Below, piece after piece: positions 7,348-55,142 of a stretch of DNA of 64,000 nt (positions are counted from its first letter, which is position 1; the number at the start of each line of letters is the position of its first letter). This stretch comes from an uncultured Clostridia bacterium (GTDB taxonomy: Bacteria > Bacillota > Clostridia > Christensenellales > UBA1242), in assembly GCA_947632645.1 (NCBI GenBank), contig CANRQB010000002.1:16489-80488 (forward strand). The letters run 5' to 3'. The position numbers were made by a program, and so were the translations under genes. The notes beneath the pieces are model-generated. The model did not search any database, had not been told where the DNA came from, and saw only the letters and a program-made list of their open reading frames with translations.

Positions 7348-7376
7348 TTGACAATTTGACTGTTTTAGTGTATAAT
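7348..7376 (+). promoter_or_regulatory. Sigma-A-type promoter of the ankyrin-repeat gene
   Basis: TTGACA (7348-7353), 17 bp, TATAAT (7371-7376). Confidence 0.65.
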
Positions 7377-7397
7377 GGCATCGGAAAAGGAGTTTTT

Positions 7398-8324
7398 ATG
7401 TTACAATCTAAGGTGGATGAGTTAAAAAAGATTGCAAAAGAAGCTTTGCAACAAGAAGACTCTTTTAAGGTAGAGTTTGGCAAAAGATTATCCAAATTTA
7501 TTAAGGACAACAACTCAGTTTACACTGACAAGCTCTCTTTTCCGACATGGTGTATTTTACAAAAGGATATTAACACATTACAAAAGCTTGCTGATGCAGG
7601 TTTTGATTTGGTGGATTTTAAGGTTAAAGATTCAATTTCTGCACAACTTACAAAAAATGGAAGTTGTTTGTTAAAAACTATTGTTAAAAATAAATGTTCG
7701 GATTCGGAAGAGTTTAAAAAGAATTTTGAAAAGTTACATCTTTTGCAATATAAAAACATTATTGATCTTGTCGATGCCTGCCAATGTGGCGATTATGATA
7801 GGGTAGAAAAACTTCTAAATGAAGGCACTCCGGTAGACGGGCGCTTGCCATTGTATGAAACTACGTCACTTATGACCGCTTGTAAAATAGGCAATATAAA
7901 AATTGTTGAACTACTTTTAGAGTTCGGCGCAAATGCTAACGCAAAGGATTATTCAGGTGAAACCCCACTTATGTGGGCTTCGTATGGCAACAATGTGGAA
8001 ATTTTAAAATTGTTGGTTAAAAAAGGTGCTAAGGTAAACGTACAAGATAAGGTTAATGGCTCAACCGCATTAATTTGGTGGGCTACCAACAGTGAGGATA
8101 ATGTGCTTGGTGCACAGTTTTTGGTGGAAAGTGGTGCAGATATATTTGCACAAGTTTCTGAGGAAAAGAATTTTAAAGGCAGAAACAAGATAGATATTAC
8201 GGCAGAAGATCACGCATTTACAAGTGATAATATAGAAATTTATAATTATCTACATGGCCTTAGACTAGAAGAAGAGGCCGCTAATAAAGAACAAAAACGC
8301 CCCTATAGTAGAAAAAGCATTTAA
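7398..8324 (+). CDS. Ankyrin-repeat protein
   Basis: ATG at 7398 after AAAGGAG. The C-terminal half has at least 3 ANK repeats (TSLMTACKIGNIKIVELLLEFGANANAKD; GETPLMWASYGNNVEILKLLVKKGAKVNVQD; GSTALIWWA...FLVESGADI). Confidence 0.8.
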   Translation: MLQSKVDELKKIAKEALQQEDSFKVEFGKRLSKFIKDNNSVYTDKLSFPTWCILQKDINTLQKLADAGFDLVDFKVKDSISAQLTKNGSCLLKTIVKNKCSDSEEFKKNFEKLHLLQYKNIIDLVDACQCGDYDRVEKLLNEGTPVDGRLPLYETTSLMTACKIGNIKIVELLLEFGANANAKDYSGETPLMWASYGNNVEILKLLVKKGAKVNVQDKVNGSTALIWWATNSEDNVLGAQFLVESGADIFAQVSEEKNFKGRNKIDITAEDHAFTSDNIEIYNYLHGLRLEEEAANKEQKRPYSRKSI

Positions 8325-24927: not shown

Positions 24928-24956
24928 TTGACTTTTTTTGGGCATTTTATTACAAT
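24928..24956 (+). promoter_or_regulatory. Sigma-A-type promoter of the 1341-aa surface protein gene
   Basis: TTGACT (24928-24933), 17 bp, TACAAT (24951-24956). This shows the ORF-track TTG start at 24928 is really the -35 box. Confidence 0.6.
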
Positions 24957-24999
24957 ATTTAAGTATAATTGTATTGCAAAAGCAAAATTAAGGAGCATT

Positions 25000-27900
25000 A
25001 TGAAGAGTATACAAAAAAATTTAAAAGCGTTCTTTGTGTTTATTGCATTTTTACTATGCAGTTTTATGTTTGTTTTAACTCCACTTAAAATTGTGCCAGT
25101 TAATGCAGCAGAAATCCCATCCGATCAAGATCCAACACAAACTGAGGACACATCAAAAGAAACGCATAAAACTTTCACATCCATTCACATGCCTAAAAAG
25201 GTGGATTTCAGCAAAAGCGAAACACTTAAAATCCCGCTTTTAACTGAAGCAAACTACACCATCCGTGTGGTAGATAAGGGTGGTTTCACTCATGATTATT
25301 CAATAGCAAGCGGCGAGGGCACTGGCTCTGAAACCTTTTTTGAAATGGTTAAAAAGTCTGGTGATGTTAACGATTATCTAACCATTCGCAGCAAAGCATC
25401 AAACAAATACCGCATATTTTATATAGTAGAAAAAAGCTCCACCTTATATTTTTCCGACGCGTACGAAGTTGAAGTTGTTGGCACCACCTACGGGCTAGAA
25501 ACCAAGCAGGTGACCAAGCAGGGTGAACAATACACCGAAACCAATCTAAACAACCTTTTCCCAACCAAAGAAAAGGTGGGTGCAACCCTAACACTACCAA
25601 AAATGTATGGCTACAGCGAAGTTAACGATAAGCGCACTTACGATAAAGAAGCAACTATATCTGTCACCTATGCCGGCAACCCAGCAAGCGCAGAAATGTA
25701 CGATGCAAAAACTGGCGTTGTTACATTTACCGAAAAGGGTAGATATGTTATAACCTACACATACGAAAACACCAATTCAGCCGAGCGCTACACAAGTGAA
25801 CATGTTATAAATGTAGAAGAAGATTTTGTTGCACCAGATGCAAGCAAAAATCAAATTAAATTGCCAGACAGCATCACTTTGCCAACCAACGTTAAATTGG
25901 GCGATAGCGAGGTTGTACTTCCAAACCCAGCTTTGCAATATAGGTTAGAAAATCTAAACTCTAACGATGCGCAAAAAAATGTGCTAGAAATAGAAATTAG
26001 AAATGTAAACACAGGCGTAAGCAAAAAACTAACAAACAATAACTTTACGTTCAATTTCACACCAGAAGAGTTTGAAGCTGACGATTATCTAGACCTAGAA
26101 GGTGAATACGAAATCACCTATAAAGTACAAGGGTATTACGGCGAAGTAACTGCAACATATGATTGGGGTCGCTTTACAAAAGATAGCGTTAAACCAACCA
26201 TTCAAGCAGTGTATAACTACGAAGCGTTTGATGAAAACGGCGTTTATATAGCAGAAGATAAAATTAAACCTGCACTTGGCGAAATTAAAGCCGAATATGA
26301 CTACACTGCAAGTGGTGGGCTACTATTCCCAGCAGCGTATGTTAACAGCCCAGTTGATAACTACGACGATTTATTAGTTGTGCGCTACTTCCAAAATACC
26401 GAAACTGCTAAACGTTACTATATCGACGGCATTAAGATAGACTCTGCTACAAACACTTATGTTGCAGTAAACGAAAGCGATGGCTTTAACTATATCTATT
26501 CAACTCAGGCAGACGAGGATAAAACTAATGTTCCAATTGTGCCAAATGATGATGCCTCTGAAAAGAAATATTTTGAACAACTATCAAAAAGCGCAATATT
26601 TAAATTTGCTAAAGAAGACACTCTTCCAAACGGCATAGCAAACCAAACCTTCCGCCTGTGCTACGAGGTTAAGGTTAAGTCTAGCCATGTTCAGTATTCA
26701 ACAAATTCTGGTGGCTACAATCGTCAAAATGCCTTGTATCAAGAGGGCACATCAAACGAATACACCTTTAAAATTGTAAGTGGCTCGGAAACTAGCACCG
26801 ATTTGGCAGTTAATGTAATTAAAAATTACTCTACTACTGCATATGTGGGCAACACTATCCGATTTAACGTGAATGCAACCGACAGCAAAGATATGCGCCT
26901 AATTAATGCAATGTACTATTCTGAAACACCTTTCACTTTCTTACAAGACGGTGATAGGCAACAAAAAATAGACCAACTATTAAACAAGGCAAAAGCAGAT
27001 TATACTAATGATTACAAAAGTCAAAATGGTGGCTACACTCAAATAGGGTTGGGCGCAGATAATATAGTTAACTATATGGAAAAGGCACTAAAGGAAGAAC
27101 TCAAACCCCCTTCAATATTTGGTAAACTAACTGCAGTGGAAGGCAGCGACACCCAATTCAATTTAGAAATTCCTTCTGACGCACATGGCAAAAAATTATA
27201 TATACTTGCCATCACCATCAACGATAATGGCAAAGTAGAGATGAATAATTCAGCGGTTATAAATGTTGCAAACACAGCAGAACAAACCGCTCCAACCGTT
27301 GCAAGCGCGTACTTCTATAACGATGCAACAAAAAAACTATACGAAGGTACAGAAAATGCAGTTGCAGGGCAGGGTGAAAAAGTTTACATTCCTACCGTAA
27401 CCTTTAGTGATGAAGATAAATATCTATACACCAGCGTTGCATACTACGTTATTCCAGAAGACACAAATGGCAAAGTTGAAGACACTACCTATCAAAATCA
27501 ATATAGATACCCAGAGGAATATAATCTATCTAACACTGTATCGGGATACATCAAAACCGATAAAGTGGGCACTTACGTGATTGTGTACACAGCAACCGAT
27601 GATGCCGGCAACACAACCGTTGTTCACTATTCGTTTAAAGTGGCTTCCACTGCACAACCTAACATCGTGGTGGATGTGACTGGCGATAATTGTGATGTTG
27701 GTGGCTCTAAAACCGATGGCTATTCGGTTAAAGTGGGCAACACAATAAATGTTAATGTGCATGCTTACGACGGCAACGATAATAATATAGAGTTACCTCA
27801 TGACGATAAATTAAAAATTGAAGTAAAACCAGTTAATGTTCAAGGCAAGGATATCAGGAATGCCGGTACAGACGAAAATTCGTACACTCTTAACAGCGCA

Positions 27901-29022
27901 GGTAGATATAGCTTTGAAGTTAATGTAACCTGGGATAGCGGTGTTGAAGGCCGTGATAAAATAACTATACCAACCTATATGTTTAATGTTACTGCCGAGC
28001 TGGATAATTCAGAAAATATAGTTTGGGATAATAACTTTAACTTGCCAGAGTATTTCTCTTACATCGAGGGGGACAACAAATTATTGCAACTTCCTCAATG
28101 GTCAGCCGAAGCACAAGAAGGGTATGTTTACAAAACCGCTTTATTGTACAAGGGGCCAAGCGATTCTGTTTGGAGCGAAGCTAAATTAAACGAAACCACT
28201 GGTAAATGGGAATTTGAACCAAAATCTATTGGTAGATACGAACTAAGTTACGAAACATACGCTATTCATGGCGGGGTGGAATATTATGGCCACAAAGAAA
28301 AAACCATAACTTACAGCGATAATGTAGAGCCAACATTTGTTGTTAACAATGGTGCGCTGGACGATAAGTTAACCTACAATGATAAGGATATAACCATCCA
28401 AGTTAAATTGGATAAATACAGCAAAGTTATGATTATAACCGCAAGCGAAGGCGACAAAAAACTTTACACTTGGACATCTTACAACGACGAAAACAAACAA
28501 AGCGATAACGCCAACTTTAAGATTGTAGAAAATACCAACGATCCAAATGGCGACCCACGTGAAAATTACAGTTGGGTTAGTGCAGAGTTAACTGTTGCTT
28601 TGCAGGATAGTTCGGGCAACAACATCGATTCAACTGACTCTACTGATGGTGACTATACCGTTAACGAATATACAATTTCGTCTACTGGCACATACAAATT
28701 TGTGTTTACTGCTAAGGACACTGCAAAAAATGTTGGCACATACGAAATTGAATTTAGCGTAACCACTAAGGCAGAGCCAACTCGCTTATCCGATTCTCAA
28801 ATTGGCATTATTCTAATTGTTGTATCTAGTGTTATATTAATTGGCGTAATCTTGTTCTTCTTGCTAACAGGTAAGGGCGGCAAAAAACAAAAACCAACCG
28901 CAATATCAAACGAAACCGAAAGCAAAAAACCAGCCAAAAAATCTAGCAGAAAATCTAGCAAAAAAGCAGAAAAAGTAGAAGAAGAACCAGTTAAAGATAG
29001 CAACGATAAAGATGCTGAATAA
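25000..29022 (+). CDS. Large surface protein: signal peptide, multiple Ig-like (DUF5011/HYR-like) modules, C-terminal TM anchor and Lys-rich cytoplasmic tail
   Basis: ATG at 25000 after AAGGAG. Signal peptide ...LTPLKIVPVNAAE. Recurrent G-x-Y-x-(I/V)-x-Y-x-A-x-D-x-x-GN-type strands (GTYVIVYTATDDAGNTTVVHYSFKV, GTYKFVFTAKDTAKNVGTYEIEFSV, and others). TM IGIILIVVSSVILIGVILFFLL. Tail KGGKKQKP...KKSSRKSSKK. Confidence 0.8.
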   Translation: MKSIQKNLKAFFVFIAFLLCSFMFVLTPLKIVPVNAAEIPSDQDPTQTEDTSKETHKTFTSIHMPKKVDFSKSETLKIPLLTEANYTIRVVDKGGFTHDYSIASGEGTGSETFFEMVKKSGDVNDYLTIRSKASNKYRIFYIVEKSSTLYFSDAYEVEVVGTTYGLETKQVTKQGEQYTETNLNNLFPTKEKVGATLTLPKMYGYSEVNDKRTYDKEATISVTYAGNPASAEMYDAKTGVVTFTEKGRYVITYTYENTNSAERYTSEHVINVEEDFVAPDASKNQIKLPDSITLPTNVKLGDSEVVLPNPALQYRLENLNSNDAQKNVLEIEIRNVNTGVSKKLTNNNFTFNFTPEEFEADDYLDLEGEYEITYKVQGYYGEVTATYDWGRFTKDSVKPTIQAVYNYEAFDENGVYIAEDKIKPALGEIKAEYDYTASGGLLFPAAYVNSPVDNYDDLLVVRYFQNTETAKRYYIDGIKIDSATNTYVAVNESDGFNYIYSTQADEDKTNVPIVPNDDASEKKYFEQLSKSAIFKFAKEDTLPNGIANQTFRLCYEVKVKSSHVQYSTNSGGYNRQNALYQEGTSNEYTFKIVSGSETSTDLAVNVIKNYSTTAYVGNTIRFNVNATDSKDMRLINAMYYSETPFTFLQDGDRQQKIDQLLNKAKADYTNDYKSQNGGYTQIGLGADNIVNYMEKALKEELKPPSIFGKLTAVEGSDTQFNLEIPSDAHGKKLYILAITINDNGKVEMNNSAVINVANTAEQTAPTVASAYFYNDATKKLYEGTENAVAGQGEKVYIPTVTFSDEDKYLYTSVAYYVIPEDTNGKVEDTTYQNQYRYPEEYNLSNTVSGYIKTDKVGTYVIVYTATDDAGNTTVVHYSFKVASTAQPNIVVDVTGDNCDVGGSKTDGYSVKVGNTINVNVHAYDGNDNNIELPHDDKLKIEVKPVNVQGKDIRNAGTDENSYTLNSAGRYSFEVNVTWDSGVEGRDKITIPTYMFNVTAELDNSENIVWDNNFNLPEYFSYIEGDNKLLQLPQWSAEAQEGYVYKTALLYKGPSDSVWSEAKLNETTGKWEFEPKSIGRYELSYETYAIHGGVEYYGHKEKTITYSDNVEPTFVVNNGALDDKLTYNDKDITIQVKLDKYSKVMIITASEGDKKLYTWTSYNDENKQSDNANFKIVENTNDPNGDPRENYSWVSAELTVALQDSSGNNIDSTDSTDGDYTVNEYTISSTGTYKFVFTAKDTAKNVGTYEIEFSVTTKAEPTRLSDSQIGIILIVVSSVILIGVILFFLLTGKGGKKQKPTAISNETESKKPAKKSSRKSSKKAEKVEEEPVKDSNDKDAE

Positions 29023-34551: not shown

Positions 34552-34587
34552 AAAAAAATCACCTGCATAATACAGGTGAAATTTTTT
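34552..34587. terminator. Bidirectional intrinsic terminator
   Basis: TCACCTG-cataata-CAGGTGA flanked by A-run and T-run, between convergent genes. Confidence 0.75.
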
Positions 34588-36085
34588 AATTTAATTTGGA
34601 AATTAAATTATCAAAACCCAGATAATATTCTATCTCTTGTTCTGTTAACTTAAACTTTTCTTTGAATAATTCAAAAAATTTCTTATGTATTTCATTACCA
34701 CAGTTGTCATGCATGAGTGCGTCGTATATTTTGTAAAAATCGCTAATTTTCATTCCTTTTACATCTCTAGCAAAACAATAAATATATTTCGCATCTCCAA
34801 TTGCAATTTCTGCTTCTAATAGTTTTACTTTGTCTTCAGGGGTTAAGCCTTCTACTTCTGTAGCAAATTTAAAAATATATTCCGCATCGCCAGTTGCAAT
34901 TTCTGCGTTTAATAGTTTTTCTTTGTCATAGGGGGTTAAGCCTTTTACATAGATAGCAAATTCGTAAATATATTTCACATCGCCAGTTGCAATTTCTGCG
35001 TCTAATAGTTTTTCTTTGTCATAGGGGGTTAAGCCATTTACACAGATAGCAAAATAATAAATATAAAACGCATCTTTAGTTGCAATAACTGCATCTAGTA
35101 ATTTTACTATGTCATCACGGATTAAGCCATTTGCATTGCAAGCAAATTCACAAATATATTTCACATCGTTATCTTTAATAACAATATCTAATAATCTTAC
35201 TTTGTATTTATGGCCTAAGCCTTCCACTCCAGCAAATGCACAAATATTTTCAACATTACCAGTTGCAATTTCTGCCTCTAATAGTTTTACTTTATCCTTA
35301 GGGGTTAAGCCTTCTACATATTTAGCAAATTCGTAAATATATTCCGCATTACCAGTTGCAATTTCTGCCTCTAATAGTTTTACTTTGTCTTCAGGGTTTA
35401 AGCCTTCTACTTTTGCAGCAAATAGATAAATACATACAGCATTGCCAGTTGCAATTACTGCATCTAATAATTTTAATTTGTCATCGGGGGTTAAGCCATT
35501 TGCATATTTAGCAAAATAATAAATATATCCTGCATCTTTAGTTGTAATAACTGCATCTAGTAATTTTACTATGCCATCGCGGGTTAAGTCATCTGTATCG
35601 CAAACAAATTTATAAAAATATCCCGCATTGCCAGTTGCAATTTCTGCATTTAATAGTTTTAATTTGTCATCGAGGGTTAAGCCTTCCACTATTCCAGCAA
35701 ATTGACTAATATTTTCAAGATTTTTAGTTTTAATTTCTGCATCAAATAGTTTTAATTTGTCCTCAGGGGTTAAGCCCTTTACAAATTTAGCAAATTTATA
35801 AATATATTCCGCATTGTTAGTTTTAATAACTGTGTCTAATACATCTAAAAGGTCATAACGGGGTAAATATTCTAAATATTCATCAAACTTGTAGCAATAT
35901 TTTATATTTTCTGATGAATATATATTTTTTGCCAAACCTAAAAATATAGCCTCTCTTGAATACTTTTTATTAGCAATTTCTTCAAGGGCACGATCGAATA
36001 TATCATTCCAACCTTGTTCTGATAAATGTTTCGCCAATTTTTTAATTATTAAATCGATTATCATTTTTTTTTGCATGTAATCCAT
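34586..36085 (-). CDS. Tandem-repeat protein: 12 consecutive 31-residue (one 30-residue) helical repeats
   Basis: ATG at 36085 sits 5 nt after GGAGG; the ORF-track TTG at 36097 is part of that RBS. Repeat consensus is roughly GLTPxDKxKLLxAEIATGxAxYIYxFAxxVxG, spanning DNA 34754-35866. Confidence 0.8.
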   Translation of the reverse strand: MDYMQKKMIIDLIIKKLAKHLSEQGWNDIFDRALEEIANKKYSREAIFLGLAKNIYSSENIKYCYKFDEYLEYLPRYDLLDVLDTVIKTNNAEYIYKFAKFVKGLTPEDKLKLFDAEIKTKNLENISQFAGIVEGLTLDDKLKLLNAEIATGNAGYFYKFVCDTDDLTRDGIVKLLDAVITTKDAGYIYYFAKYANGLTPDDKLKLLDAVIATGNAVCIYLFAAKVEGLNPEDKVKLLEAEIATGNAEYIYEFAKYVEGLTPKDKVKLLEAEIATGNVENICAFAGVEGLGHKYKVRLLDIVIKDNDVKYICEFACNANGLIRDDIVKLLDAVIATKDAFYIYYFAICVNGLTPYDKEKLLDAEIATGDVKYIYEFAIYVKGLTPYDKEKLLNAEIATGDAEYIFKFATEVEGLTPEDKVKLLEAEIAIGDAKYIYCFARDVKGMKISDFYKIYDALMHDNCGNEIHKKFFELFKEKFKLTEQEIEYYLGFDNLISKLN

Positions 36086-36170
36086 AATTTCCTCCAACTA
36101 ACACAATTTTATCATAAAAATTTTATTTGTCAATACCTTTTTAAAAATTAGTTTTATTTTTATATATCTC

Positions 36171-36223: not shown

Positions 36224-39200
36224 ATGCTTAACAACATAATCATTAAAGGTGCAAAGGAAAATAACCTAAAAAATATCGATTTAACACTACCAAAAAACCA
36301 ACTTATTGTGTTTTCAGGCGTAAGTGGGTGTGGCAAAAGTACGCTTGCATTTGATACCATTTTTGCTGAGGGCCAGCGCAGATATATGGAGAGTTTATCC
36401 AGTTATGCGCGCCAATTTTTGGGGCAAATGAACAAGCCGGACGTGGAGAGCATAGATGGCTTAAGCCCGGCCGTTTCTATCGACCAAAAATCCACCAATA
36501 ACAACCCGCGTTCAACCGTTGGCACAATAACCGAAATATACGATTATTTCCGTCTACTTTTTGCCCGCATAGGCAAGCCATATTGCCCAAAATGCGGCAA
36601 GCCAATTAGTGCGCAGACAATCGACCAGATTGTAGACCATATCTGTGCGCTTGATGAGGGCAGCAAACTGCTTATTATGGCGCCAATTGTGCGCGCGCAA
36701 AAGGGCAGCCAGGAAAAGGTGCTAGATGCTTTGCGTAAGGACGGCTATGTGCGCGTTATGGTGGATGGCGAAGTGCTGCAACTGGACGAAGAGATTAATC
36801 TGGATAAAAACAAGCGCCACGATGTTAGTGTTGTGGTGGACAGAATTATAAATAAAGAGGGGATAACTAGCCGCCTAACCGACAGTGTGGATAAATGCTT
36901 GCAACTTGCAAACGGGCTGGTTACTGTATTTGATGGAAAACAAACCCACCTATACAGCACAAAATATAGTTGTGTGGATTGCGGCATTTCGCTACCCGAC
37001 ATCGAGCCATCTTTCTTCAGTTTTAACAGCCACCAAGGCGCTTGCCCAAAATGCGATGGCTTGGGCTACGTTATAAAAATTGGCGAAAGCGCGATTGTTA
37101 AAAACGACCGCTTGTCCATAAACGAGGGTGCACTTGCTGTGCTTGGCTTTAATATTGATGCCACCGGCATAACCAAAAAAGCACTTAATAAACTGGTTAA
37201 AAAGTACGGCTACACGCTGGATACTCCATACAATAAGTTCAGTAAAGAACTGCGCGAAGCACTTATCAATGGTGAAAAAGGCGAGTTAGAACCCGCACCA
37301 AATTTGCATCAATATCTTCTCAGATCAGATTATAGATTTATGGGCATTATCCCAGATTTGTTGCGCCGCTTTAACGAAAGCAACAGCGAGTGGATTAAAG
37401 AGGAAATATATAAGCTTATGTCGCAAGACACTTGCCCAGAATGCCACGGCAGAAGGTTAAATCCGGCTGCGCTGTCGATAAAAATCAACAACAAAAACAT
37501 TGCAGATTTGTGCGAGATGTCTATTGAGCGTCTGTACGAATTTATCTGCAACCTTAAACTTAACAAAACCGAGCAGCAGGTGGCGGAAAGCATTTTGCAC
37601 GAGATTAAGGCGCGCCTATCGTTTTTAATAAATGTCGGCTTAACCTATCTTAGCCTGTCGCGTGCGGCGGGCACACTGTCGGGCGGGGAAGCACAGCGCA
37701 TCCGCCTTGCAACCCAGATTGGCAGTGGGCTAAGCGGGGTGCTATACATTTTGGACGAGCCAAGCATTGGCTTGCATCAGCGTGATAACGACCGCCTTAT
37801 TTCCGCCCTTAAAAACTTGCGTGATTTGGGCAACACGCTTATTGTAGTCGAGCACGACGAGGACACAATTCGTTCGGCCGACTACATTGTGGATATCGGT
37901 CCAAAAGCGGGCGTGCATGGCGGCGAAGTTGTGGCTAAGGGTAGCGTGCAAGATTTAATCGATAGCCCACGTAGCATGACAGGCAAATTTTTGTCGGGTG
38001 AGGAAAAGATTGAAGTTCCATCCGCACGGCGCGAAATTAAAAAGGAGTATATCCGCTTGCTTGGTTGCCGCGAACATAACATTAAAGATTTGGATGTGGC
38101 AATCCCGCAAGGTGTGCTTACACTGGTTACTGGGGTTAGTGGCAGCGGCAAATCCACCTTGGTTAACGATATTTTCTATCGCGCGCTGTTCAATAAACTT
38201 AACCGCCGCCCACAAGAAAATAATTTTGATAGCCTTTTGGGGGCGGATAAGATAGATAAAGTTATCCAAATCGACCAAGATCCAATCGGCCGCACTCCGC
38301 GCAGCAACCCGGTTACTTATTCGGGCGTGTTTACTAAAATTCGCGAACTTTTTGCATCCACTAATCTTGCAAAAAGCAAGGGATATGGGCCAAATAAGTT
38401 TAGTTTTAATGTTGAGGGCGGCAGGTGCGAAGCCTGCGCGGGCGATGGCGTAAAGCGGCTTAGGATGTACTTTATGCCGGACGTGTACGTGCCATGTGAG
38501 GTGTGCAACGGCAAGCGCTATTCACGCGAAACACTCGAGATTAAATATAAGGACAAAAACATCTATGATGTGCTAGAGATGACGATAGACGAGGCATACG
38601 AATTTTTTGAAAACATCCCGCCAATAAAATCCAAACTGCAAACGCTGGTGGATGTTGGGCTTGGTTATGTTAAACTTGGGCAAAGCGCAACTACACTGTC
38701 GGGCGGCGAGGCACAGCGCCTTAAACTTGCCACCGAACTTACTAGGCGAGATACTGGAAACACGGTTTACATTTTGGATGAGCCAACTACTGGCCTACAC
38801 AGTTATGACGTTAAAAAATTGGTTAACATTTTGCAACGTCTAGTTGGCAACGGCAACACGGTTGTGGTTATCGAACACAATTTGGATGTTATAAAAACGG
38901 CCGACTATATTATAGATATGGGGCCAGAAGGTGGCGAAGGTGGCGGCAAAATTATAGCCACCGGCACACCGGAAGAAGTGGCAAAAGTTAAAGGTAGCTA
39001 CACCGGCCAATATCTAAAAAAATACCTAGAAAAACCCGCCACCAAAACCGCAGATAGCAAAGCGAATAAAAAATCAAGTGCCGAAACAAAAAAATCAAAA
39101 GCAACTGCTGAAAATAAAAAATCTAAAGCAAGTGCGGAAAATAAAAAATCCACTAAAAATGATACCGCAAAAACAAAAAAGACAGCCACAAAATCAACAA

Positions 39201-39241
39201 CTAAAAAATCAGCCACCAAAACAAAATCAGCAAAAAAATAA
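36224..39241 (+). CDS. uvrA: Excinuclease ABC subunit A with a 68-residue Lys-rich C-terminal extension
   Basis: Two ABC ATPase modules (GVSGCGKST, GVSGSGKST; LSGGEAQR twice) and Zn-finger Cys pairs. The canonical end GSYTGQYLKKYLEK is followed by PATKTADSKANKKSS...KTKSAKK (39035-39238). Confidence 0.97.
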   Translation: MLNNIIIKGAKENNLKNIDLTLPKNQLIVFSGVSGCGKSTLAFDTIFAEGQRRYMESLSSYARQFLGQMNKPDVESIDGLSPAVSIDQKSTNNNPRSTVGTITEIYDYFRLLFARIGKPYCPKCGKPISAQTIDQIVDHICALDEGSKLLIMAPIVRAQKGSQEKVLDALRKDGYVRVMVDGEVLQLDEEINLDKNKRHDVSVVVDRIINKEGITSRLTDSVDKCLQLANGLVTVFDGKQTHLYSTKYSCVDCGISLPDIEPSFFSFNSHQGACPKCDGLGYVIKIGESAIVKNDRLSINEGALAVLGFNIDATGITKKALNKLVKKYGYTLDTPYNKFSKELREALINGEKGELEPAPNLHQYLLRSDYRFMGIIPDLLRRFNESNSEWIKEEIYKLMSQDTCPECHGRRLNPAALSIKINNKNIADLCEMSIERLYEFICNLKLNKTEQQVAESILHEIKARLSFLINVGLTYLSLSRAAGTLSGGEAQRIRLATQIGSGLSGVLYILDEPSIGLHQRDNDRLISALKNLRDLGNTLIVVEHDEDTIRSADYIVDIGPKAGVHGGEVVAKGSVQDLIDSPRSMTGKFLSGEEKIEVPSARREIKKEYIRLLGCREHNIKDLDVAIPQGVLTLVTGVSGSGKSTLVNDIFYRALFNKLNRRPQENNFDSLLGADKIDKVIQIDQDPIGRTPRSNPVTYSGVFTKIRELFASTNLAKSKGYGPNKFSFNVEGGRCEACAGDGVKRLRMYFMPDVYVPCEVCNGKRYSRETLEIKYKDKNIYDVLEMTIDEAYEFFENIPPIKSKLQTLVDVGLGYVKLGQSATTLSGGEAQRLKLATELTRRDTGNTVYILDEPTTGLHSYDVKKLVNILQRLVGNGNTVVVIEHNLDVIKTADYIIDMGPEGGEGGGKIIATGTPEEVAKVKGSYTGQYLKKYLEKPATKTADSKANKKSSAETKKSKATAENKKSKASAENKKSTKNDTAKTKKTATKSTTKKSATKTKSAKK

Positions 39242-39254
39242 ACAAAAAGCAAAA

Positions 39255-39283
39255 AATTAAGGTAAAAGTCCTTAATTTTTTTT
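39255..39283 (+). terminator. uvrA intrinsic terminator
   Basis: AATTAAGG-taaaagt-CCTTAATT followed by a T-run. Confidence 0.7.
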
Positions 39284-39330
39284 AATTTTCATTAAATTTT
39301 AGTGATTTTTTAGATAAATTTTTATAATTT

Positions 39331-39835
39331 AATTACAATAGTAGTTAAAACTTTGCCCTAATTACAATAGTAATTAAAACTTATTTTATCCGTAATAACA
39401 ATAGTAATTAAAACGATTGCATCCGTAATAACTATAGTTATTAAAATAGATAACAAAATTCATTATAACTAAAGTTATTTAGATATTGATATCATAATAA
39501 CAATAGTAATTAAAATCTATTAAAGTGGCATAATTACAATAGTAATAAAGATAAGTGGGCAGTATCCGTTATAACTAAAGTTATTAAAACAACTAGCAAA
39601 AACTAAAGTTATTAAACAATATCTTGATTACAATAGTAATAAAAACAATTATATCCATTATAACTATAGTTATTAAAATAGATGCCATGATAACAATAGT
39701 AATAAAATTCATTATTACAATAGTAATAAAAACAAAAATATCCGTTATAACTATAGTTATTAAAATATTGATATAGTAATTACAAGAGTAATAAAAACTA
39801 ATATTACAATTCATTATTACAATAGTAATAATTAT
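39331..39835. repeat. Array of 16 short palindromic units (two alternating core types), mean spacing about 32 bp
   Basis: Cores are ATTACAATAGTAAT and ATAACTATAGTTAT (or ATAACTAAAGTTAT), each followed by TAAAA. Hand-mapped centres at 39338.5, 39367.5, 39401.5, 39434.5, 39471.5, 39503.5, 39539.5, 39577.5, 39605.5, 39633.5, 39666.5, 39696.5, 39720.5, 39753.5, 39785.5, 39821.5. Confidence 0.85.
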
Positions 39836-39852
39836 AACACTTGTTCTTTTGT

Positions 39853-39907
39853 TACTTTTCTATCAAAGAAAAGTATGTTCTTTTGTTACTTTTCTTGCAA
39901 GAAAAGT
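39853..39907. repeat. Tandem pair of GTTACTTTTC-family hairpins
   Basis: GTTCTTTTGTTACTTTTCT-atcaa-AGAAAAGTA (hairpin 39853-39875) and GTTCTTTTGTTACTTTTCTTGCAAGAAAAGT (39888-39907). Confidence 0.8.
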
Positions 39908-39940
39908 TATATAAAATAATTACAAAAATAATTATAAAAG

Positions 39941-40321
39941 TTAAAGCAAATTTAGCCAAGTGATGCCGCTGGCTTCTTTAAGGCCATCGATGTTGTAGTC
40001 GAGTAGGCGGGCATAGGTTAGGGCGTCATCCGCGCTGTTGTTTTCTACAGCCGACACCAAATATTGCAGATAGTCGCTTACCGGCTGCAGATCTTTTTTG
40101 GATATGCTTATGGCAAGTTTGTCCATTTCGCGCGTCCAATAATCGTTAAGTTTATCCACTTTCACTTCTAGCGCATCATCAATTTCGCCGGTTTCAAGTT
40201 GGGTGTAAATTGCATCGCTTTCTTTGGTTAGGTAATTAAACACTTTATGGGTGTTAACGCTCTCCCAAATTATAAAGCCAGTAACCGCAACAATAAGGAT
40301 GAAAATAGGTACATTTTTCAT
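39941..40321 (-). CDS. DUF4363-like small membrane-anchored protein
   Basis: N-terminal TM plus about 100 aa of helical domain. 4-nt overlap with the upstream DUF421 gene, a pairing common in Clostridia. Confidence 0.5.
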   Translation of the reverse strand: MKNVPIFILIVAVTGFIIWESVNTHKVFNYLTKESDAIYTQLETGEIDDALEVKVDKLNDYWTREMDKLAISISKKDLQPVSDYLQYLVSAVENNSADDALTYARLLDYNIDGLKEASGITWLNLL

Positions 40322-41067
40322 AGCTTCACCACCTTATTAATGTTTTCGATAATCTTATAACTTTCGCCTTTTTGTTGATAGTAAATTTTTCCATCCCTAT
40401 CCATGCAAAGCAGAATAAGTTGTTTGGCTTTAAGTTTTAGGTGCGCCAAAATTTTGTTTAACCCGTCCATTTCCAAATCTATTTGCTGCATCTCTTCCTT
40501 AATAATTTTTCCATCGCTAACAATAACATGGGTTAGTTTAGTTGGCGGGTTGTTTGCCCCAACATCTTGCGCAGTTGCGGGCGCGTTTTGGCTGGTTGGG
40601 ATAATGCTGATTGTCCCGTTTGTTTCAACTATGGCAAACAGCACCTGGTCAAAACTATTGTAACTATTTTGCCGCATTGCCTCCAAAATGTCGTCGATAT
40701 TCATGTTAAGGTTTTTAAGCGCTTCGTACTCTATCCCTTGCGGACTAATTATCACCACCGGCTTGCCACTTAAAAAATTGCGCACGCCCACACTTTTGCG
40801 CGTTATAAAGGTGATTATAAAGTGGATTATAACCAGCACGGCAAGCGGCAAAATGCCGTTTAAAAGCGGGATGTTGTTGTCGCTCATTGGCAGGGTGGCA
40901 AGGTCGGCAATAATAAGGGTGATAACCACTTCGTACGGTTGCATTTGCCCGATTTGGCGCTTGCCCATAATGCGCATAAACACCAGCACTGTTAGGTAAA
41001 TTATTAAAACGCGAATAAACACAATAAACATACCTAAATTATTTACATCAAAAAATAATTTAAACAA
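40318..41067 (-). CDS. DUF421/YetF-family membrane protein
   Basis: N-terminal TM helices with MRIMGKRQIGQMQPYEVVITLIIADL (YetF/YrbG-type signature) and a soluble C-terminal domain. Confidence 0.7.
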   Translation of the reverse strand: MFKLFFDVNNLGMFIVFIRVLIIYLTVLVFMRIMGKRQIGQMQPYEVVITLIIADLATLPMSDNNIPLLNGILPLAVLVIIHFIITFITRKSVGVRNFLSGKPVVIISPQGIEYEALKNLNMNIDDILEAMRQNSYNSFDQVLFAIVETNGTISIIPTSQNAPATAQDVGANNPPTKLTHVIVSDGKIIKEEMQQIDLEMDGLNKILAHLKLKAKQLILLCMDRDGKIYYQQKGESYKIIENINKVVKL

Positions 41068-43355: not shown

Positions 43356-46300
43356 TTATTCAGCTTTTGGCTTATCTGATTTGGATTTTGTAGTTCTTTT
43401 TGTGGATTTTTTGCCTTCTTCATCAGATTTTGCTGCATCTGTTTTATCTAAAGATTTTCCTGTGGATTTTGTTGCCTTTTTTGCAGTGTTTGTTTTGGCA
43501 TTTTTTGTTTTAGATGCAGTGGTTGCTGGTTTGGTCTCTTCGGTTGTGCTATCTTGCTCAGTTTGCTCAATCTCTTCAACCACACCAGTTGCTTGTGCTT
43601 CGCTTTCCAGGCGTTTTGTTATGCTTGCCATATACGATGCCGAGTTTACATACGCAATGTCGCTTTCCACACGCGCAATGTTAATGCCAATAGATGCAGA
43701 GGCTTTTTGATTTTGTTTTAACTCTTTTTCCAGTTTGCTGATATCCGATTTATTTGCACGTCTAATTTTCATCTCGCGCAGTTTGCTTAGGTCGGCTTTA
43801 TAAGTTTCTTCATACTTGGTGCGCTCGTCAGTTAAAGTTTTAAGTTCGCTGTTAAGTTCGGCAAGCTTTTCCTCTTTTAGCTGCATTGCCTTGCGCGCAT
43901 AGTATTGTTTAGACACTGTTTTGTTGCGGTCGTACTCATTTTTGGTTTTCTTGGCTGGCTTTTTAAATTTAACCTTGCGTAGAATTATGCCAACAACTGC
44001 AACTATAATGGTTAGTGCAAATAGGATAGATGATATAACATATGGCAATCCGCGCCAATTTATTTTATTTTTGCTTTCGGTGGTATCATCGGTGTTGGTA
44101 TCGTCTTGGTTTTCATCCAGCTCGGTTGCCAAAATTTTGGTGGTGGAATTTTCGGCTAGCTTGTTAAACTGACTATCGGTATAATCTAGTGAATTAAATT
44201 TAATATTTCCAATAAACAGTTCGCCCTTTAAACGCACATCTTCGTTACCAAAGTTTATAATTAAGTTAGAGGTTTTGTCTGCACTGGCTTTAACATAATA
44301 GGTGTAGCTTACAAAGTTTTTTTCTGCCACAACATTTTCAAAAGTGTTGTTTTCGTAGCCAGAGAATGCAATATTTAAGCCATTTTCGTCCGCATTGGAA
44401 GAAACTACATTTGTAAACAAACTAAAGCTTAAAATGTAATATTTTCCGCTTGCTAGGTTAAAGCCAATTTTGGTTGATACGCTACCCATGCCAAACTCGT
44501 TTAAATTTATCCTTAGGGCTTTTTCGTTATCCCAACCATTAGCTTCGGCTTGCAATTTTGCAGTTAAATCGGCATCGCCATAGTTGTAAATTTTTGCGTT
44601 TACAACCGATAGGTTAACGTTTTCGGCTGCGTAGTAGTTTGTATCTATAAGGTCGGACAAATCTGCTTTTGCCGCTGCGTTAATAAACTCTTGTTCGGTT
44701 ACATCGGTTTCAAATTTAACATTGTCTACAAACGTTGTGCTGGTACTTGTGCTAATTTTTACAACCAGGTTGGCAGATGCATCTGCTGCTTTAACATATA
44801 AACTTACATTTTGCCATTGCCCATTGTTGTTATAAACATCCAACGAGCAAAGCGAACAATCGTTATTGCTTCTTAGCAGCACTTCTACCTTTGCCTTAGA
44901 TAGTGTGTATATATCAAGCGAAAATTTTGCATAGCCGGTTGATAGCGAGGAACTGCCAGAGAAAGCAGATATTTCACCTGTTGCAGGGTACAGCATAAGC
45001 ACATTGCCCTTTTTCATGTTAGCATCATAGCTAGGTAGGTGAACATAAAAAGGCAAATTGTTTTGCTTATACAAGGCAGTGTCTGCCAAATTTACAATTC
45101 CATAATACTGATTGTCGCTATAGCCCGATTGGGTAAAAGTCCAATTTTCTGCATTAAGCGGATATGGGTTGGCTGCATCGGTTACACTAGCGTTATTAAA
45201 TTCACCATTAGTTACATATGGGGAAGAACTTGTTGTGGATGAGGATAAATCTAATTTAGAAATGTTGTTACCTGTTGTTGTGCTAGAATATTGCGCACTG
45301 GTGCAGATTTGACTTTCTACACTATAAATGTACAGCTTGCCAGAAAAACCAGAGGTGTTTAGTTTTAGTACGTATTCGTTTGCGTCGGTTTGGCTAGATT
45401 TTACCCAAAATTCATATAAACTGTAATCGGCAGAGCTAGATATTGCTAAACTTGCAACCTTTTCATCAGTTGGGTTATCTTTTGGTGCAAGTTTAAGGGT
45501 GGCACTGCCCGACGAGTTTTCTGTTTTAAGAGTTACAATAACCCTATTTATAAGGTGGCGATTAAAGGTGAAACTGTAATCGCTGTTGTCTGCCTTTTTA
45601 AACTCGGCTTCTGCGGTTGTTTGGTTGAAATTTAGCACTAAATCCTTAACATTTGCGTTGGTTTGGGTTGTGCCGGCAAACGATAGATCTTTGCCAGAAA
45701 CTTCGTTTGATACGGTGCGTTTATCTAAAGCTACATTATTTGGATTGCTAAGCAAAGTGTTGTACTCTTGCTCGTTAATTTTTTGCATAGACAAACTGTC
45801 AAACAAAATGTCGCCATTGCCGTTTAATATCATTGCTGGCTTAACTTTTAAGCTTTCTAGATTGTCTGTGGCAACAAGCAAGTTATATTCGTACCACGAT
45901 CCTTTTGGTGTAGAGATGGCAGATTTTTCTAATAAAACGATGTCGTTATTGTTGGCATCCAGCAGCGAAAATGTGCCTATACCATCGCGGTTAGAGGTGT
46001 TTATAAACACGCTAAATTTATAAAACGAGTTTTTGTCTAAATTTAGTGAATACGAGGTTTTGTATCCAAACTTTACATTATGACTTGTTTCAACATCCAC
46101 GTTGCTAGAAGTGTTATTGTCGCCTTCTTCCTTCATACTGCGCTTTGTGGTGCTGCTTATAAGTAGGACATATTTGTTTAAGCTTTGGTCGGCGTTGTAG
46201 CGCCTAGGGTATTTTAAATAATCGGCAGCAGTTAAATTTGCAATTCCTGTGGTTACAAGCTCTTTATTAGAATAGCCCGCGCCAGTTATAGCCTCAAATT

Positions 46301-46487
46301 GCGAACTTGATGGTGTTGCAAGCGTGCTGGAAGACCCGTCAAATTCGCCATTAGTTATGCTTGATTCGGCAAAAACAAAAGATTTATGCCCATAAAATAT
46401 AAAACATAAATTTGTGCAAAATAAAACTATTGCTAAAAATAAAACTATAAATAATCGTTTTAATTTAGATGAATTTTTAACTAACAT
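43356..46487 (-). CDS. Large surface protein: signal/TM, CBM-like beta-sandwich modules, TM helix, cytoplasmic coiled coil and Lys-rich tail
   Basis: ATG at 46487 chosen; the TTG at 46514 coincides with the predicted transcription start. NGEF-type module starts (ITNGEFDGSS, VTNGEFNNASV...ENWTF). TM LPYVISSILFALTIIVAVVGIIL. Heptad-rich segment, then KTKNAKTNTAKKATKSTGK...KSKSDKPKAE. Confidence 0.8.
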   Translation of the reverse strand: MLVKNSSKLKRLFIVLFLAIVLFCTNLCFIFYGHKSFVFAESSITNGEFDGSSSTLATPSSSQFEAITGAGYSNKELVTTGIANLTAADYLKYPRRYNADQSLNKYVLLISSTTKRSMKEEGDNNTSSNVDVETSHNVKFGYKTSYSLNLDKNSFYKFSVFINTSNRDGIGTFSLLDANNNDIVLLEKSAISTPKGSWYEYNLLVATDNLESLKVKPAMILNGNGDILFDSLSMQKINEQEYNTLLSNPNNVALDKRTVSNEVSGKDLSFAGTTQTNANVKDLVLNFNQTTAEAEFKKADNSDYSFTFNRHLINRVIVTLKTENSSGSATLKLAPKDNPTDEKVASLAISSSADYSLYEFWVKSSQTDANEYVLKLNTSGFSGKLYIYSVESQICTSAQYSSTTTGNNISKLDLSSSTTSSSPYVTNGEFNNASVTDAANPYPLNAENWTFTQSGYSDNQYYGIVNLADTALYKQNNLPFYVHLPSYDANMKKGNVLMLYPATGEISAFSGSSSLSTGYAKFSLDIYTLSKAKVEVLLRSNNDCSLCSLDVYNNNGQWQNVSLYVKAADASANLVVKISTSTSTTFVDNVKFETDVTEQEFINAAAKADLSDLIDTNYYAAENVNLSVVNAKIYNYGDADLTAKLQAEANGWDNEKALRINLNEFGMGSVSTKIGFNLASGKYYILSFSLFTNVVSSNADENGLNIAFSGYENNTFENVVAEKNFVSYTYYVKASADKTSNLIINFGNEDVRLKGELFIGNIKFNSLDYTDSQFNKLAENSTTKILATELDENQDDTNTDDTTESKNKINWRGLPYVISSILFALTIIVAVVGIILRKVKFKKPAKKTKNEYDRNKTVSKQYYARKAMQLKEEKLAELNSELKTLTDERTKYEETYKADLSKLREMKIRRANKSDISKLEKELKQNQKASASIGINIARVESDIAYVNSASYMASITKRLESEAQATGVVEEIEQTEQDSTTEETKPATTASKTKNAKTNTAKKATKSTGKSLDKTDAAKSDEEGKKSTKRTTKSKSDKPKAE

Positions 46488-46519
46488 AAACCCTCGTAAA
46501 ATTTCGTTTAACAAAATTA

Positions 46520-46548
46520 ATTATAATATAATTAACAAAAAAAAGCAA
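46520..46548 (-). promoter_or_regulatory. Sigma-A-type promoter of the 43356-46487 gene
   Basis: On the minus strand: TTGCTT (46548-46543), 17 bp, TATAAT (46525-46520). Confidence 0.55.
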
Positions 46549-46581
46549 ATAAATTTATGCGATATTGTAAATAATATCTTT

Positions 46582-46944
46582 ATGAAAAAGGTAAAAAAAC
46601 TACATATCCTCATCTTTGGTGCACTAATTGGCATTATAAACGGTTTTTTTGGCGGTGGCGGCGGCATGATTGTGGTGCCTGTACTTAACAAATTGTTTGG
46701 CTTAAATCAAAAGCAGGCACAAGCAACCGCGCTGTTTATAATTTTGCCAATAAGTGTGGTTAGCGCCATAGTGTACATGTGCAACCATTCAATAAGTTTT
46801 TCTTCTGGTTGGCCGGTTATTGTGGGCATCGTGCTGGGCGGGGTGGCGGGCGCGCTTTTACTAAACAAAATAAAAAACAAAATTTTACAGGGCATTTTTG
46901 TGTTTTTTATGGCGCTAAGCGGTGTAGTTATGCTTATATGGTAG
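46582..46944 (+). CDS. Half-size TauE/SafE (DUF81) family permease, first of two
   Basis: ATG at 46582; the ORF-track start at 46414 overlaps the divergent gene. 4 TM segments with GFFGGGGGMIVVPVL. Confidence 0.7.
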   Translation: MKKVKKLHILIFGALIGIINGFFGGGGGMIVVPVLNKLFGLNQKQAQATALFIILPISVVSAIVYMCNHSISFSSGWPVIVGIVLGGVAGALLLNKIKNKILQGIFVFFMALSGVVMLIW

Positions 46945-46948
46945 GTTT

Positions 46949-47320
46949 ATGATATTTATTGAGGTTTTAGCCGGTGTGCTTGGCGGTATAGTGGCTGGCA
47001 TGGGTATGGGTGGCGGCACCTTAACTATACCAATTTTAACCATATTTTTACACTTTAAACAACTAAGCGCACAAGGGATAAATTTAATAGCATTTTTGCC
47101 AATGAGTGTGTTGGCACTTTTTATCCACATAAAAAATGGGCTTGTAAAGTTTAAACAAACCTGGCTACTTGCACTTGTTGGTTGTGTTTTTAGTTTGCTT
47201 GGCTCGCTAGTGGCAATAAAGCTTAGCAATGCCGTATTAAAAAAATGCTTTGCCGTGTTTTTAATTTTGCTTGCAATTTATCAAGTTATTGTTATGGTTA
47301 GGCAAAAAAAATCCAAATAG
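46949..47320 (+). CDS. Half-size TauE/SafE (DUF81) family permease, second of two
   Basis: Starts 4 nt after the previous stop, in a different frame. 4 TM segments with GMGMGGGTLTIPIL. Confidence 0.7.
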   Translation: MIFIEVLAGVLGGIVAGMGMGGGTLTIPILTIFLHFKQLSAQGINLIAFLPMSVLALFIHIKNGLVKFKQTWLLALVGCVFSLLGSLVAIKLSNAVLKKCFAVFLILLAIYQVIVMVRQKKSK

Positions 47321-50042: not shown

Positions 50043-50372
50043 AAAAATTTTTAAAAATTTGCAGTAAAAATTAGTTATAATGCGTTAATTTTGCTTAAAA
50101 TTTAACTAATTTAATAAATTTTTAATCAGTTTTACAATTTTAAACAAAATTATATAAACATATTTGTTGCATTTTGTAAATTGAAAATAATTTAAAAATT
50201 TATTGAAAATTTGTTAAAATTTTATATATATAAATGTTTTATGTTTTTTAAAAAAATGATTGTTAATTAACTTTAAATCAATTTTATAATCAATCTAATT
50301 TTTATTGATTTATAAAAGTTTTATTATATATCATAATTACTTTTGTAATAATTTTAATTAAAAAATTTGTAT

Positions 50373-50406
50373 AAAAAAAGCTCACAAAATTGTGGGCTAT
50401 TTTTTA
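50373..50406. terminator. Bidirectional intrinsic terminator
   Basis: AGCTCACA-aaat-TGTGGGCT flanked by A-run and T-run. Overlaps the valS stop. Confidence 0.7.
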
Positions 50407-54984: not shown

Positions 54985-55066
54985 GTTTTTATCTTTGCAT
55001 AATTTTGTTGGCAAATTAAATGCGTAAAATCACCATAAAATAAACCAATTTTTTAGCCAATTTTGT

Positions 55067-55095
55067 TTGACTTAAAAATTTAAAAATAATATAAT
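55067..55095 (+). promoter_or_regulatory. Sigma-A-type promoter of the giant ORF
   Basis: TTGACT (55067-55072), 17 bp, TATAAT (55090-55095). Confidence 0.6.
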
Positions 55096-55142
55096 TATTT
55101 TGTAGAAAATTGTAGATAATAATTTTTAAGGGTATCAGGGGT

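Follow-up and report, generated by a model that had tools for sequence, protein, structure and literature searches.

An array of palindromic units between uvrA and a DUF4363 gene

A 64,000-nucleotide stretch of DNA from an uncultured Clostridia bacterium (hereafter the window) carries, between uvrA and a gene encoding a DUF4363 protein, a tandem array of 16 short palindromic units, the anatomy, relatives and possible function of which are analyzed here. The gap that holds the array is situated between convergent 3' ends, spans 699 bp (39242-39940) with 23% G+C, and contains no credible open reading frame (ORF), as an initial annotation of the same DNA had also stated; the sole ORF inside the array (73 amino acids (aa), 39593-39814, minus strand) is a translation of the repeats. 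All units share the core ATWACWAWAGTWAT and the same orientation (Table 1), and the neighbours of the array are uvrA and the genes for DUF4363, YetF, a polysaccharide flippase and LysM.

Table 1. Features of the uvrA-DUF4363 gap and related sites in the window (L numbers designate loci or contigs of other genomes)
Feature	Coordinates	Strand	Evidence or remark
uvrA, 1005 aa, left flank	36224..39241	+	Pfam UvrA_inter, UvrA_DNA-bind
uvrA intrinsic terminator, 12-bp stem AAAAAATTAAGG/CCTTAATTTTTT, then T run	39251..39290	+	inverted repeat; kept in L060
AT-rich leader	39291..39331		~83% identity to L060, same as coding DNA
Array, 16 direct units (YCRTW + 14-bp dyad core ATWACWAWAGTWAT + WAAAAY)	39332..39829	+	
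Unit 1, A-type, one mismatch (ATTACAATAGTAGT)	39332..39345	+	pattern search
Unit 2, A-type (TAATTACAATAGTAATTA)	39361..39374	+	18-bp near-palindrome; form of L100 operator
Unit 3, hybrid (ATAACAATAGTAAT)	39395..39408	+	pattern search
Unit 4, B-type (ATAACTATAGTTAT)	39428..39441	+	same as promoter-spacer operator of L025, L099, L106
Unit 5, B-type variant (ATAACTAAAGTTAT)	39465..39478	+	same as operators at L106 613 and L025 2105
Unit 6, hybrid	39497..39510	+	pattern search
Unit 7, A-type	39533..39546	+	pattern search
Unit 8, B-type variant	39571..39584	+	pattern search
Unit 9, degenerate B-type (AAAACTAAAGTTAT)	39599..39612	+	pattern search
Unit 10, A-type	39627..39640	+	pattern search
Unit 11, B-type	39660..39673	+	pattern search
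Unit 12, hybrid	39690..39703	+	pattern search
Unit 13, A-type	39714..39727	+	pattern search
Unit 14, B-type	39747..39760	+	pattern search
Unit 15, A-type, one mismatch (ATTACAAGAGTAAT)	39779..39792	+	pattern search
Unit 16, A-type	39816..39829	+	pattern search
Two 34-bp tandem hairpin repeats, stem ACTTTTCT/AGAAAAGT	39842..39909	+	-7.9 kcal/mol; U-rich tail on + strand
Degenerate outlying 17th unit (ATTACAAAAATAAT)	39919..39932	+	pattern search
DUF4363 gene, right flank	39941..40321	-	Pfam; operon with YetF/DUF421 (40318-41067)
Solitary A-type site (ATTATTACAAAAGTAATTAT), centre AAAA like L063 units	50336..50349	-	pattern search

A search of both strands with at most one mismatch gave 33 matches to the core pattern, against 1.65 ± 1.42 expected from 100 dinucleotide shuffles of the window, which demonstrates that the 16 units recognized by eye in the initial annotation are real; their positions also held, except that the last unit lies at 39816-39829 rather than 39815-39828. 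Outside the array region, core sites occur in the 64 kb only at 50336 and 52450. The repeat family, the unit boundaries of which the annotation had allowed might be artefacts of AT-richness, was recovered independently by a repeat search (family D1, nine copies) and by Tandem Repeats Finder (TRF; period 33 x 3.6 copies).

The units fall into three flavours and not the two first described. Seven belong to flavour A (ATTAC-AAKA-GTART, where K is G/T and R is A/G; canonical form ATTACAATAGTAAT), including two that are one base off the canonical form (the unit at 39332 ends in GTAGT and that at 39779 has the centre AAGA); six belong to flavour B (ATAAC-TAWA-GTTAT), including the degenerate one at 39599; and three are hybrids (ATAAC-AATA-GTAAT) that are non-palindromic at positions 3/12. 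C5 and G10 are invariant in the array, and the half-site ATWAC with a 4-bp centre is present in 16/16 units. Position by position, the profile is conserved from -4 to +20 (YCRTW, core, WAAAAY), giving an asymmetric unit of ~24 bp; the conserved C at -4 and T at -2 agree with the ATCCGT-type sequence previously noted before some cores, and the tail (T/A)AAAA(C/T), once thought to follow each core, occurs in ~10 of the 16 units. The spacers (4-13 nt) are variable in length and carry no information.

Unit spacing ranges from 24 to 38 bp with a mean of 32.3 bp, as annotated, but its standard deviation (SD) of 3.9 bp implies that there is no strict helical phasing, so the suggested three helical turns are poorly supported, and A-tract phasing or curvature was rejected as the spacing is too loose. 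The 87-bp periodicity is real and corresponds to a 71-nt block (family D2, 86% identical) made of B, hybrid and A units rather than of B, A and A; the recurrence of this block after 87 bp shows that the array grew by duplicating multi-unit blocks. Clustered regularly interspaced short palindromic repeats (CRISPR), already doubted in the annotation, were rejected because the ~24-bp units, although of a length possible for CRISPR repeats (about 23-50 bp), are separated by only 4-13 nt instead of unique spacers of about 26-72 bp, and because they come in three flavours; in a Pfam survey, the longer ORFs of the window showed no cas-like domain. The units were likewise rejected as intrinsic terminators, again in line with the annotation: their AU stems reach only -3.9 to 0 kcal/mol, their tails are A-rich, and a terminator scan finds none in the array.

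Operators with the same core and the history of the units

A two-unit pattern was scanned against 185,579 species genomes and matched 47 loci, a number close to the rough estimate of ~30 chance matches. Clusters of at least three sites were present in only two of these loci, L025 (eight sites) and L034 (three sites), and both adjoin homologous XRE helix-turn-helix (HTH) genes. In L025, from an uncultured Clostridia metagenome-assembled genome (MAG), eight units occupy 475 bp between two divergent small HTH genes, and in L034 three units directly precede a tandem pair of HTH genes. The HTH proteins encoded at L025 and L034 are homologues with 54-55% identity (67-71 aa; Pfam HTH_19/HTH_3/HTH_31), and their family matches solved dimers of the Cro/CI type, namely the ICEBs1 Xre-family regulator, the PbsX family and restriction-modification (R-M) controller proteins, as well as solved DdrO, 434 and P22 repressors and CylR2. 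A metagenome scan returned only coding tandem repeats with periods of 15 or 21, and two viral scans returned giant-virus and low-complexity repeats in coding DNA and, beyond these, a single ordinary phage CI/Cro region (L055) with three ATAACTTTAGTTAT operators. One viral contig end (L090 1-160), unrelated to the window lineage, carries about ten palindromes of the GTTATAAC-N5-GTTATAAC type at 12-26 bp spacing and may be a terminal repeat or telomere-like array.

As an independent test, homologues of the HTH proteins were picked by protein search alone (661 at E ≤1e-8) and the upstream DNA was then inspected for four. Three sites with 26/29-bp spacing were detected upstream of the genes in L099 (87% identical to L025 HTH1) and L101/L102 (66%), and one site, TAATTACGAATGTAATTA, in L100 (71%), while L103-105 (65%) had a different palindrome. 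Altogether, five exact matches occurred in 422 bp, against ~0.05 expected from AT-rich control DNA (Poisson P ~2e-9). The B core of the window, ATAACTATAGTTAT, is letter-for-letter the operator of L025, L099 and L106, the A flavour matches the L100 operator form TAATTAC-N4-GTAATTA, and related but not identical 14-mers are located upstream of HTH genes in L101, L100 and L034. The palindrome takes up exactly the 17 bp between the TTGACT and -10 elements of a promoter that faces the divergent partner in L099, L025 and L100, the textbook repressor-operator arrangement of a classic autoregulated switch.

In gut Clostridia, this HTH module has more than 660 close homologues and consists of one to three tandem XRE HTH genes of 67-71 aa, which usually face a divergent gene of 66-74 aa across two or three palindromic operators (L025 1878-2778; L099 533-1277; L100 1399-2137; L101 2181-2713; L034 6945-7675; L103 2191-2923); the divergent partner in L034 is a 74-aa ORF with no family assignment. 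The module adjoins housekeeping genes (recN, prfA, hisS, mnmA) and not obvious prophages, and operator specificity differs among its members.

Expansion of the operators was also observed at the home locus of the HTH genes. Compared with the reference locus L025, which has six extra tandem units, L106 (HTH 97% identical to L025 HTH1) has four and L099 (87%) has none; the extra units are placed beyond the two promoter-proximal operators, on the downstream side, and before the start codon of HTH2. The copy-number variation that the initial annotation proposed to look for is therefore present at the home locus, and was not detected for the window array itself, which is 100% identical, with no polymorphism, on three metagenome contigs. 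When the orthologous arrays of L106 and L025 were compared, the 23-bp units differed at 4/91 positions (4.4%) and the spacers at 43/149 (29%; Fisher P 1.3e-6), so that the units are kept constant as the intervening DNA diverges. An asymmetric flank, with C at -4, T at both -2 and -1 and AA behind the core, is common to the units of the window, of L063 and of the L025/L106 expansion, which defines an 'array-type' version of the unit in three genomes; the promoter-proximal operators are without it.

Among the relatives of the locus itself, the syntenic L060 (84% protein identity, ~83% DNA identity) has intact synteny around the array and retains the terminator of uvrA and a leader of 45 bp; the 34-bp hairpin repeat is present there in three copies, which indicates that the hairpin repeats are older than the array. 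At the array position, L060 has ~80 bp with two or three degenerate proto-units instead, and a further 21.6 kb of the same MAG contained no array. In the more distant L064, uvrA and DUF4363 overlap. L063 (87%) has no array after DUF4363, and it carries seven units (cccTTTATTACTTTTGTAATAAT, the reverse complement of the window A-type, with the centre AAAA) with a higher-order period of ~105 bp, as a 350-bp insertion, seen neither in the window nor in L060, in the divergent LysM/polysaccharide-flippase spacer. The comparison with related genomes, a check raised by the annotation, thus had a mixed outcome, with the array missing in the nearest syntenic relative and a seven-unit array of the same family elsewhere in L063. 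The unit family is thus common to the lineage, but each array is a lineage-specific gain at an intergenic site of its own.

It was also considered whether the palindromes act as hairpins or as sites in duplex DNA. Single units fold with -3.9 (A), -0.9 (B) and 0 (hybrid) kcal/mol, and the hybrid units lose the hairpin yet keep both half-sites; the commonest unit of L025 (ATTAC...GTTAT) is likewise non-complementary at positions 3/12. The constraint falls on the half-site ATWAC and not on pairing, and a dimeric protein reading duplex DNA fits this better than an RNA or DNA hairpin. Positions 3/12 are complementary in 13/16 units (one-sided P 0.01), a covariation given little weight because it depends on duplication history and is broken in the hybrids and in L025. 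Folding of the whole region beats shuffles on both strands (z = -4.2 and -8.6), which carries no information, as any array of palindromes would score well on either strand.

Flanks and wider neighbourhood of the array

The C-terminal tail of UvrA is rich in Lys, Thr and Ala and is encoded by 27-bp repeats (TRF, 39070-39255), and the protein is longer than its homologues in L060 (966 aa) and L064 (936 aa). The leader contains TATAAT at 39323-39328 with only a weak -35, and there is a weak promoter-like match TAGATA-17-TACAAT (9/12, poor -35); promoter-like matches in the gap are weak and not above shuffles. On the DUF4363 side, the 34-bp hairpin repeats are probable terminators that close the gap. 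They belong to a second repeat family of 33-34 bp tandem hairpins of the GTTAC-TTTTCT...AGAAAA-GTAAC type, with two copies in the window (39842-39909) and three in L060 (6381-6480), and is also present in L108 (1375-1472 and 2706-2771), and a related 33-bp pair occupies a further intergenic spacer of the relative; the U-rich tail of these hairpins is on the strand opposite to the adjacent genes.

The only solitary A-type unit lies in the convergent spacer between groEL and leuS, a class-I tRNA synthetase gene (50043-50403; 360 bp, ~20% G+C), and was not found in the equivalent spacer of the relative L108. The Pfam survey identified a core chromosome (thrS, infC, rplT, holB, rpoB, rpoC, uvrB, pepF, uvrA, groEL, the class-I tRNA synthetase gene and ksgA) and no par, rep, transposase, integrase or HTH regulator gene. 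No match to Rfam (15) at the gathering threshold, and no tRNA or transfer-messenger RNA, was found in the window; at E up to 10, only chance-level microRNA and small nucleolar RNA matches appeared, outside the array.

Several other features of the window were observed. Between a 134-aa gene and uvrA, in a stretch of 31% G+C, a 503-aa ORF without a real Pfam match (34586-36097, minus strand) consists largely of 11.5 tandem 93-bp (31-aa) copies with a 462-bp higher-order period (34755-35816); it is not in the syntenic L060 and is thus a lineage-specific repeat protein. A homologue of the TauE/SafE sulfite exporter is formed by two adjacent ORFs (46414-46944 and 46949-47320), likewise in L108 (8118-8788), and the split is probably a genuine two-gene arrangement, not a frameshift. 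A 322-aa ankyrin-repeat protein (7356-8324, plus strand) is encoded in a housekeeping neighbourhood, and two large proteins have no Pfam match (24928-29022, 1364 aa; 43356-46514, 1052 aa). From ~55000 to 64000, past ksgA, the plus strand has no complete ORF of at least 100 aa for ~9 kb and a strong positive AT skew; L108 has, from 17864 on, a gene of at least 3430 aa at the matching place, and a giant ORF probably runs off the end of the window.

Two leads suggested by the sequence of the units were tried and rejected. A LexA/SOS connection was prompted by the resemblance of the core to GAAC-N4-GTTC and by the adjoining uvrA, but this motif gave 10 matches against 12.8 expected, and neither a Cheo box nor an array core was found upstream of uvrA or uvrB. 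A relation to DnaA boxes, considered for the TATCCGT flank by eye and not by a scan, was dropped: the flank has at least two mismatches to TTATCCACA, and is present in only 5-6 units, and there is no GC-skew turn at the array.

A possible orphan operator cluster and its alternatives

The initial annotation had listed a binding-site array for a dimeric protein among its candidate explanations, and this is the one now favoured, in view of the identity of the cores to operators of small XRE HTH genes. With a probability of about 0.5, the array is a tandemly amplified orphan cluster of operator-type sites that would bind an HTH repressor encoded elsewhere. Like known operators, it has a dyad of 14-20 bp with conserved half-sites and a fixed centre, and identical 14-mers lie at regulator genes of the family (L025, L099, L106); overlap with the controlled promoter is found at the home loci and not for the window array, which lies between two terminators.

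The closest parallels are the Cro/CI operator clusters (OR1-3 of lambda, 434 and P22, the Xre sites of ICEBs1 and PBSX, and the C-boxes of R-M systems), which share the dyad-symmetric sites of 14-18 bp with a fixed centre and, as regards the home loci, two or three sites spaced by 26/29 bp, situated between divergent HTH genes and including one in the promoter spacer. The window differs from them in having 16 sites instead of two or three, an additional asymmetric flank, no adjacent regulator, no promoter overlap and a location between convergent 3' ends. Going by the passages of PMC4207663 that describe it, the Rco system of pLS20 is also similar in its XRE regulator, divergent promoters, multi-site binding and DNA looping, but concerns a plasmid conjugation switch, and no orphan array is mentioned in these passages.

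In the mechanism envisaged, Cro/CI-type (XRE) HTH dimers would read dyad-symmetric sites of 14-18 bp with the half-site ATWAC and a fixed 4-bp centre; the cognate repressor would be encoded elsewhere in the genome, and up to 16 of its dimers could be bound in a transcriptionally quiet gap. The array might then serve as a chromosomal sink or decoy of high capacity, titrating the repressor and thereby moving the threshold at which its switch operates, and secondarily as a protein barrier between two converging transcription units. It would have grown by unequal or slipped tandem duplication of blocks of one to three units, after which selection would have retained the ~24-bp units and let the spacers decay. 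We infer from sequence comparison that the genome encodes such a repressor and that it binds the array, and titration would be the most likely consequence of such binding.

Titration loci are known from E. coli (datA) and B. subtilis (DnaA-box clusters), both acting on DnaA, and from the incA iterons of P1, acting on RepA. Together with engineered DNA sponges, they resemble the array as non-promoter clusters with many high-affinity sites for one protein and a presumed lowering of free protein, but the natural loci act on replication initiators, whereas here a switch repressor is presumed and relatives differ in the number of sites. Titration of transcription factors by decoy sites has been well studied in theory and synthetic biology, while natural dedicated decoy arrays for transcriptional repressors are, to our knowledge, hardly documented in bacteria. 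As far as the accounts in PMC7686491 and PMC8599769 go, the titration of a transcription factor by decoy sites is an established bacterial principle, for which the synthetic DNA sponges of PMC7686491 offer a precedent.

Several points weigh against a repressor-binding array. No member of the HTH family was found in the 64-kb window (tblastn and profile searches in six frames) or in ~58 kb of relatives' DNA, which makes the binder hypothetical for this organism, and another protein could read a 14-bp AT-rich palindrome. The window represents a poorly sampled Clostridia lineage that is distant from sequenced genomes: its GroEL is 82% identical to that of one MAG and at most 69% to all others, the best-named matches being labelled 'Clostridia bacterium', and its DUF4363 protein has only 15 detectable homologues. 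As the array is absent from the nearest syntenic relative, it is dispensable, and as it touches no recognizable promoter, no direct regulatory output is visible. The conservation of the units could result from concerted evolution rather than from selection for binding. Finally, we know of no natural tandem operator array for which a sink function has been shown.

The foremost alternative, possible but clearly less probable, is a selfish or neutral hairpin-prone minisatellite, in which a chance AT-rich palindrome in intergenic DNA would expand and contract by replication slippage or unequal exchange, its cores kept similar by recent duplication or concerted evolution, without function and with only an incidental likeness to operators. 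The initial annotation had mentioned a fast-evolving minisatellite, and as an account of the origin this stands: the direct orientation and the higher-order periods (87 bp in the window, ~105 bp in L063) show that the arrays arose by tandem duplication, L060 and L108 have no array but only two or three degenerate proto-units, the L063 array occupies another intergenic site, as an insertion of ~350 bp compared with the window and L060, the number of units at the HTH locus is variable, and the lineage also has the other tandem hairpin repeats of 33-34 bp. What a minisatellite leaves unexplained is that divergence is not uniform, with near-invariant cores between random, length-variable spacers and orthologous units that are 4.4% divergent against 29% for the spacers (P ~1e-6). 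Moreover, the same 20-24 bp unit occurs in three genomes at unrelated loci with no common spacers, hybrid units unable to form a hairpin were retained, and the operator identity passes the independent test.

Less probable still is a roadblock or insulator, in which repressor-bound units would mainly stop RNA polymerase or prevent replication-transcription conflicts rather than titrate. The location between convergent 3' ends would suit such a role, as would the extra units at the home locus, where protein bound downstream of the controlled promoter would block elongation. A documented precedent is provided by the stoperators of cluster A mycobacteriophages, where, according to the sections of PMC9283540 that treat them, numerous repressor sites that are not in promoters act on RNA polymerase during elongation. 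By analogy, a stoperator-like function is possible for the units downstream of the promoter in L025 and L106 or between the converging genes of the window, and a barrier to converging transcription would be a weaker alternative to titration. The stoperators described there are, however, asymmetric 13-bp sites, bound by monomers, dispersed over the phage genome and orientation-dependent, whereas the units of the array are dyad-symmetric, tandem and chromosomal. Each of the two flanking transcription units already has a terminator of its own (39251-39290, and the hairpin repeats that are older than the array), dyad-symmetric sites confer no orientation dependence, and 16 sites far exceed the need of a block.

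A transcribed repeat RNA is slightly more doubtful. It would be a ~500-nt noncoding RNA or a long 3' untranslated region, with hairpins that bind an RNA-binding protein, as in a CsrB-like sponge, or affect mRNA stability. The TATAAT in the 83%-conserved leader and the U-tailed hairpins at 39842-39909 could frame a plus-strand unit, the extra units of L025 and L106 fall in the presumed 5' leader of HTH2, the L063 units are upstream of a same-sense gene, and the whole region folds better than shuffles. The hairpin-rich transcript of the annotation is weakened, however, by the three hybrids that do not fold and the B units with only -0.9 kcal/mol, and even A units reach just -3.9 kcal/mol; low z on both strands is expected of any palindrome array, raising E to 10 brings up no Rfam match in the array, the promoter-like sequence is weak (9/12, poor -35), and the sense of the units relative to neighbouring genes differs between the window and both L025 and L063.

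Repetitive extragenic palindromic (REP) sequences of enterobacteria and their mosaic elements (BIMEs) are, like the array, short extragenic palindromic clusters, often after convergent genes and with strain-variable copy number. REPs are rich in G+C, come in alternating orientation and in hundreds of copies, and are associated with RAYT transposases; none of these traits was seen for the array in the 64-kb window. It is very improbable that the units are REP/BIME-like palindromes mobilized by an IS200/IS605-type transposase, or iterons or a centromere of an integrated replicon, even though they are clustered between convergent genes, their family occupies different intergenic sites in related genomes, and direct arrays of ~20-bp sites resemble plasmid iterons and parC: the units are AT-rich and in one orientation, the 64 kb contain a single array plus one or two solitary copies, whereas 58 kb of relatives' DNA contain neither, the Pfam survey of the window's longer ORFs, which showed core housekeeping chromosome, found no rep or par gene next to which iterons or a centromere would be expected, so that the centromere- or iteron-like label is not supported, and synteny with L060 is intact around the array. 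A nucleoid-organizing role, also named in the annotation, is not supported.

Operator and decoy clusters are known as such, and the novelty of the present one is that it is unusually large, tandem, orphan and copy-number variable. The finding is of moderate interest, and would be of high interest should an evolvable array be shown to titrate a switch repressor. If no protein binds, the array would be a neat case of a minisatellite seeded by a palindrome, in a lineage that has been little sampled. A more speculative extension of the repressor-binding reading, which we hold only tentatively, is that the array is an evolvable 'DNA sponge', a decoy bank of variable copy number that sets the level of a free Cro/CI-like repressor; gain and loss of units (0, 4, 6, 7 and 16 across relatives and loci) would then act as a knob, or contingency mechanism, that tunes a bistable switch heritably, and the two core flavours could each serve one of two paralogous repressors. 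If the array and its relatives do bind a Cro/CI-type repressor, it would follow that operator clusters can undergo tandem amplification at orphan sites as well as at the switch itself, and that a genetic switch can evolve in a simple way through the copy number of a repeat; the array would also provide a handle on a very large uncharacterized family of small paired HTH genes in gut Clostridia, with more than 660 close members.

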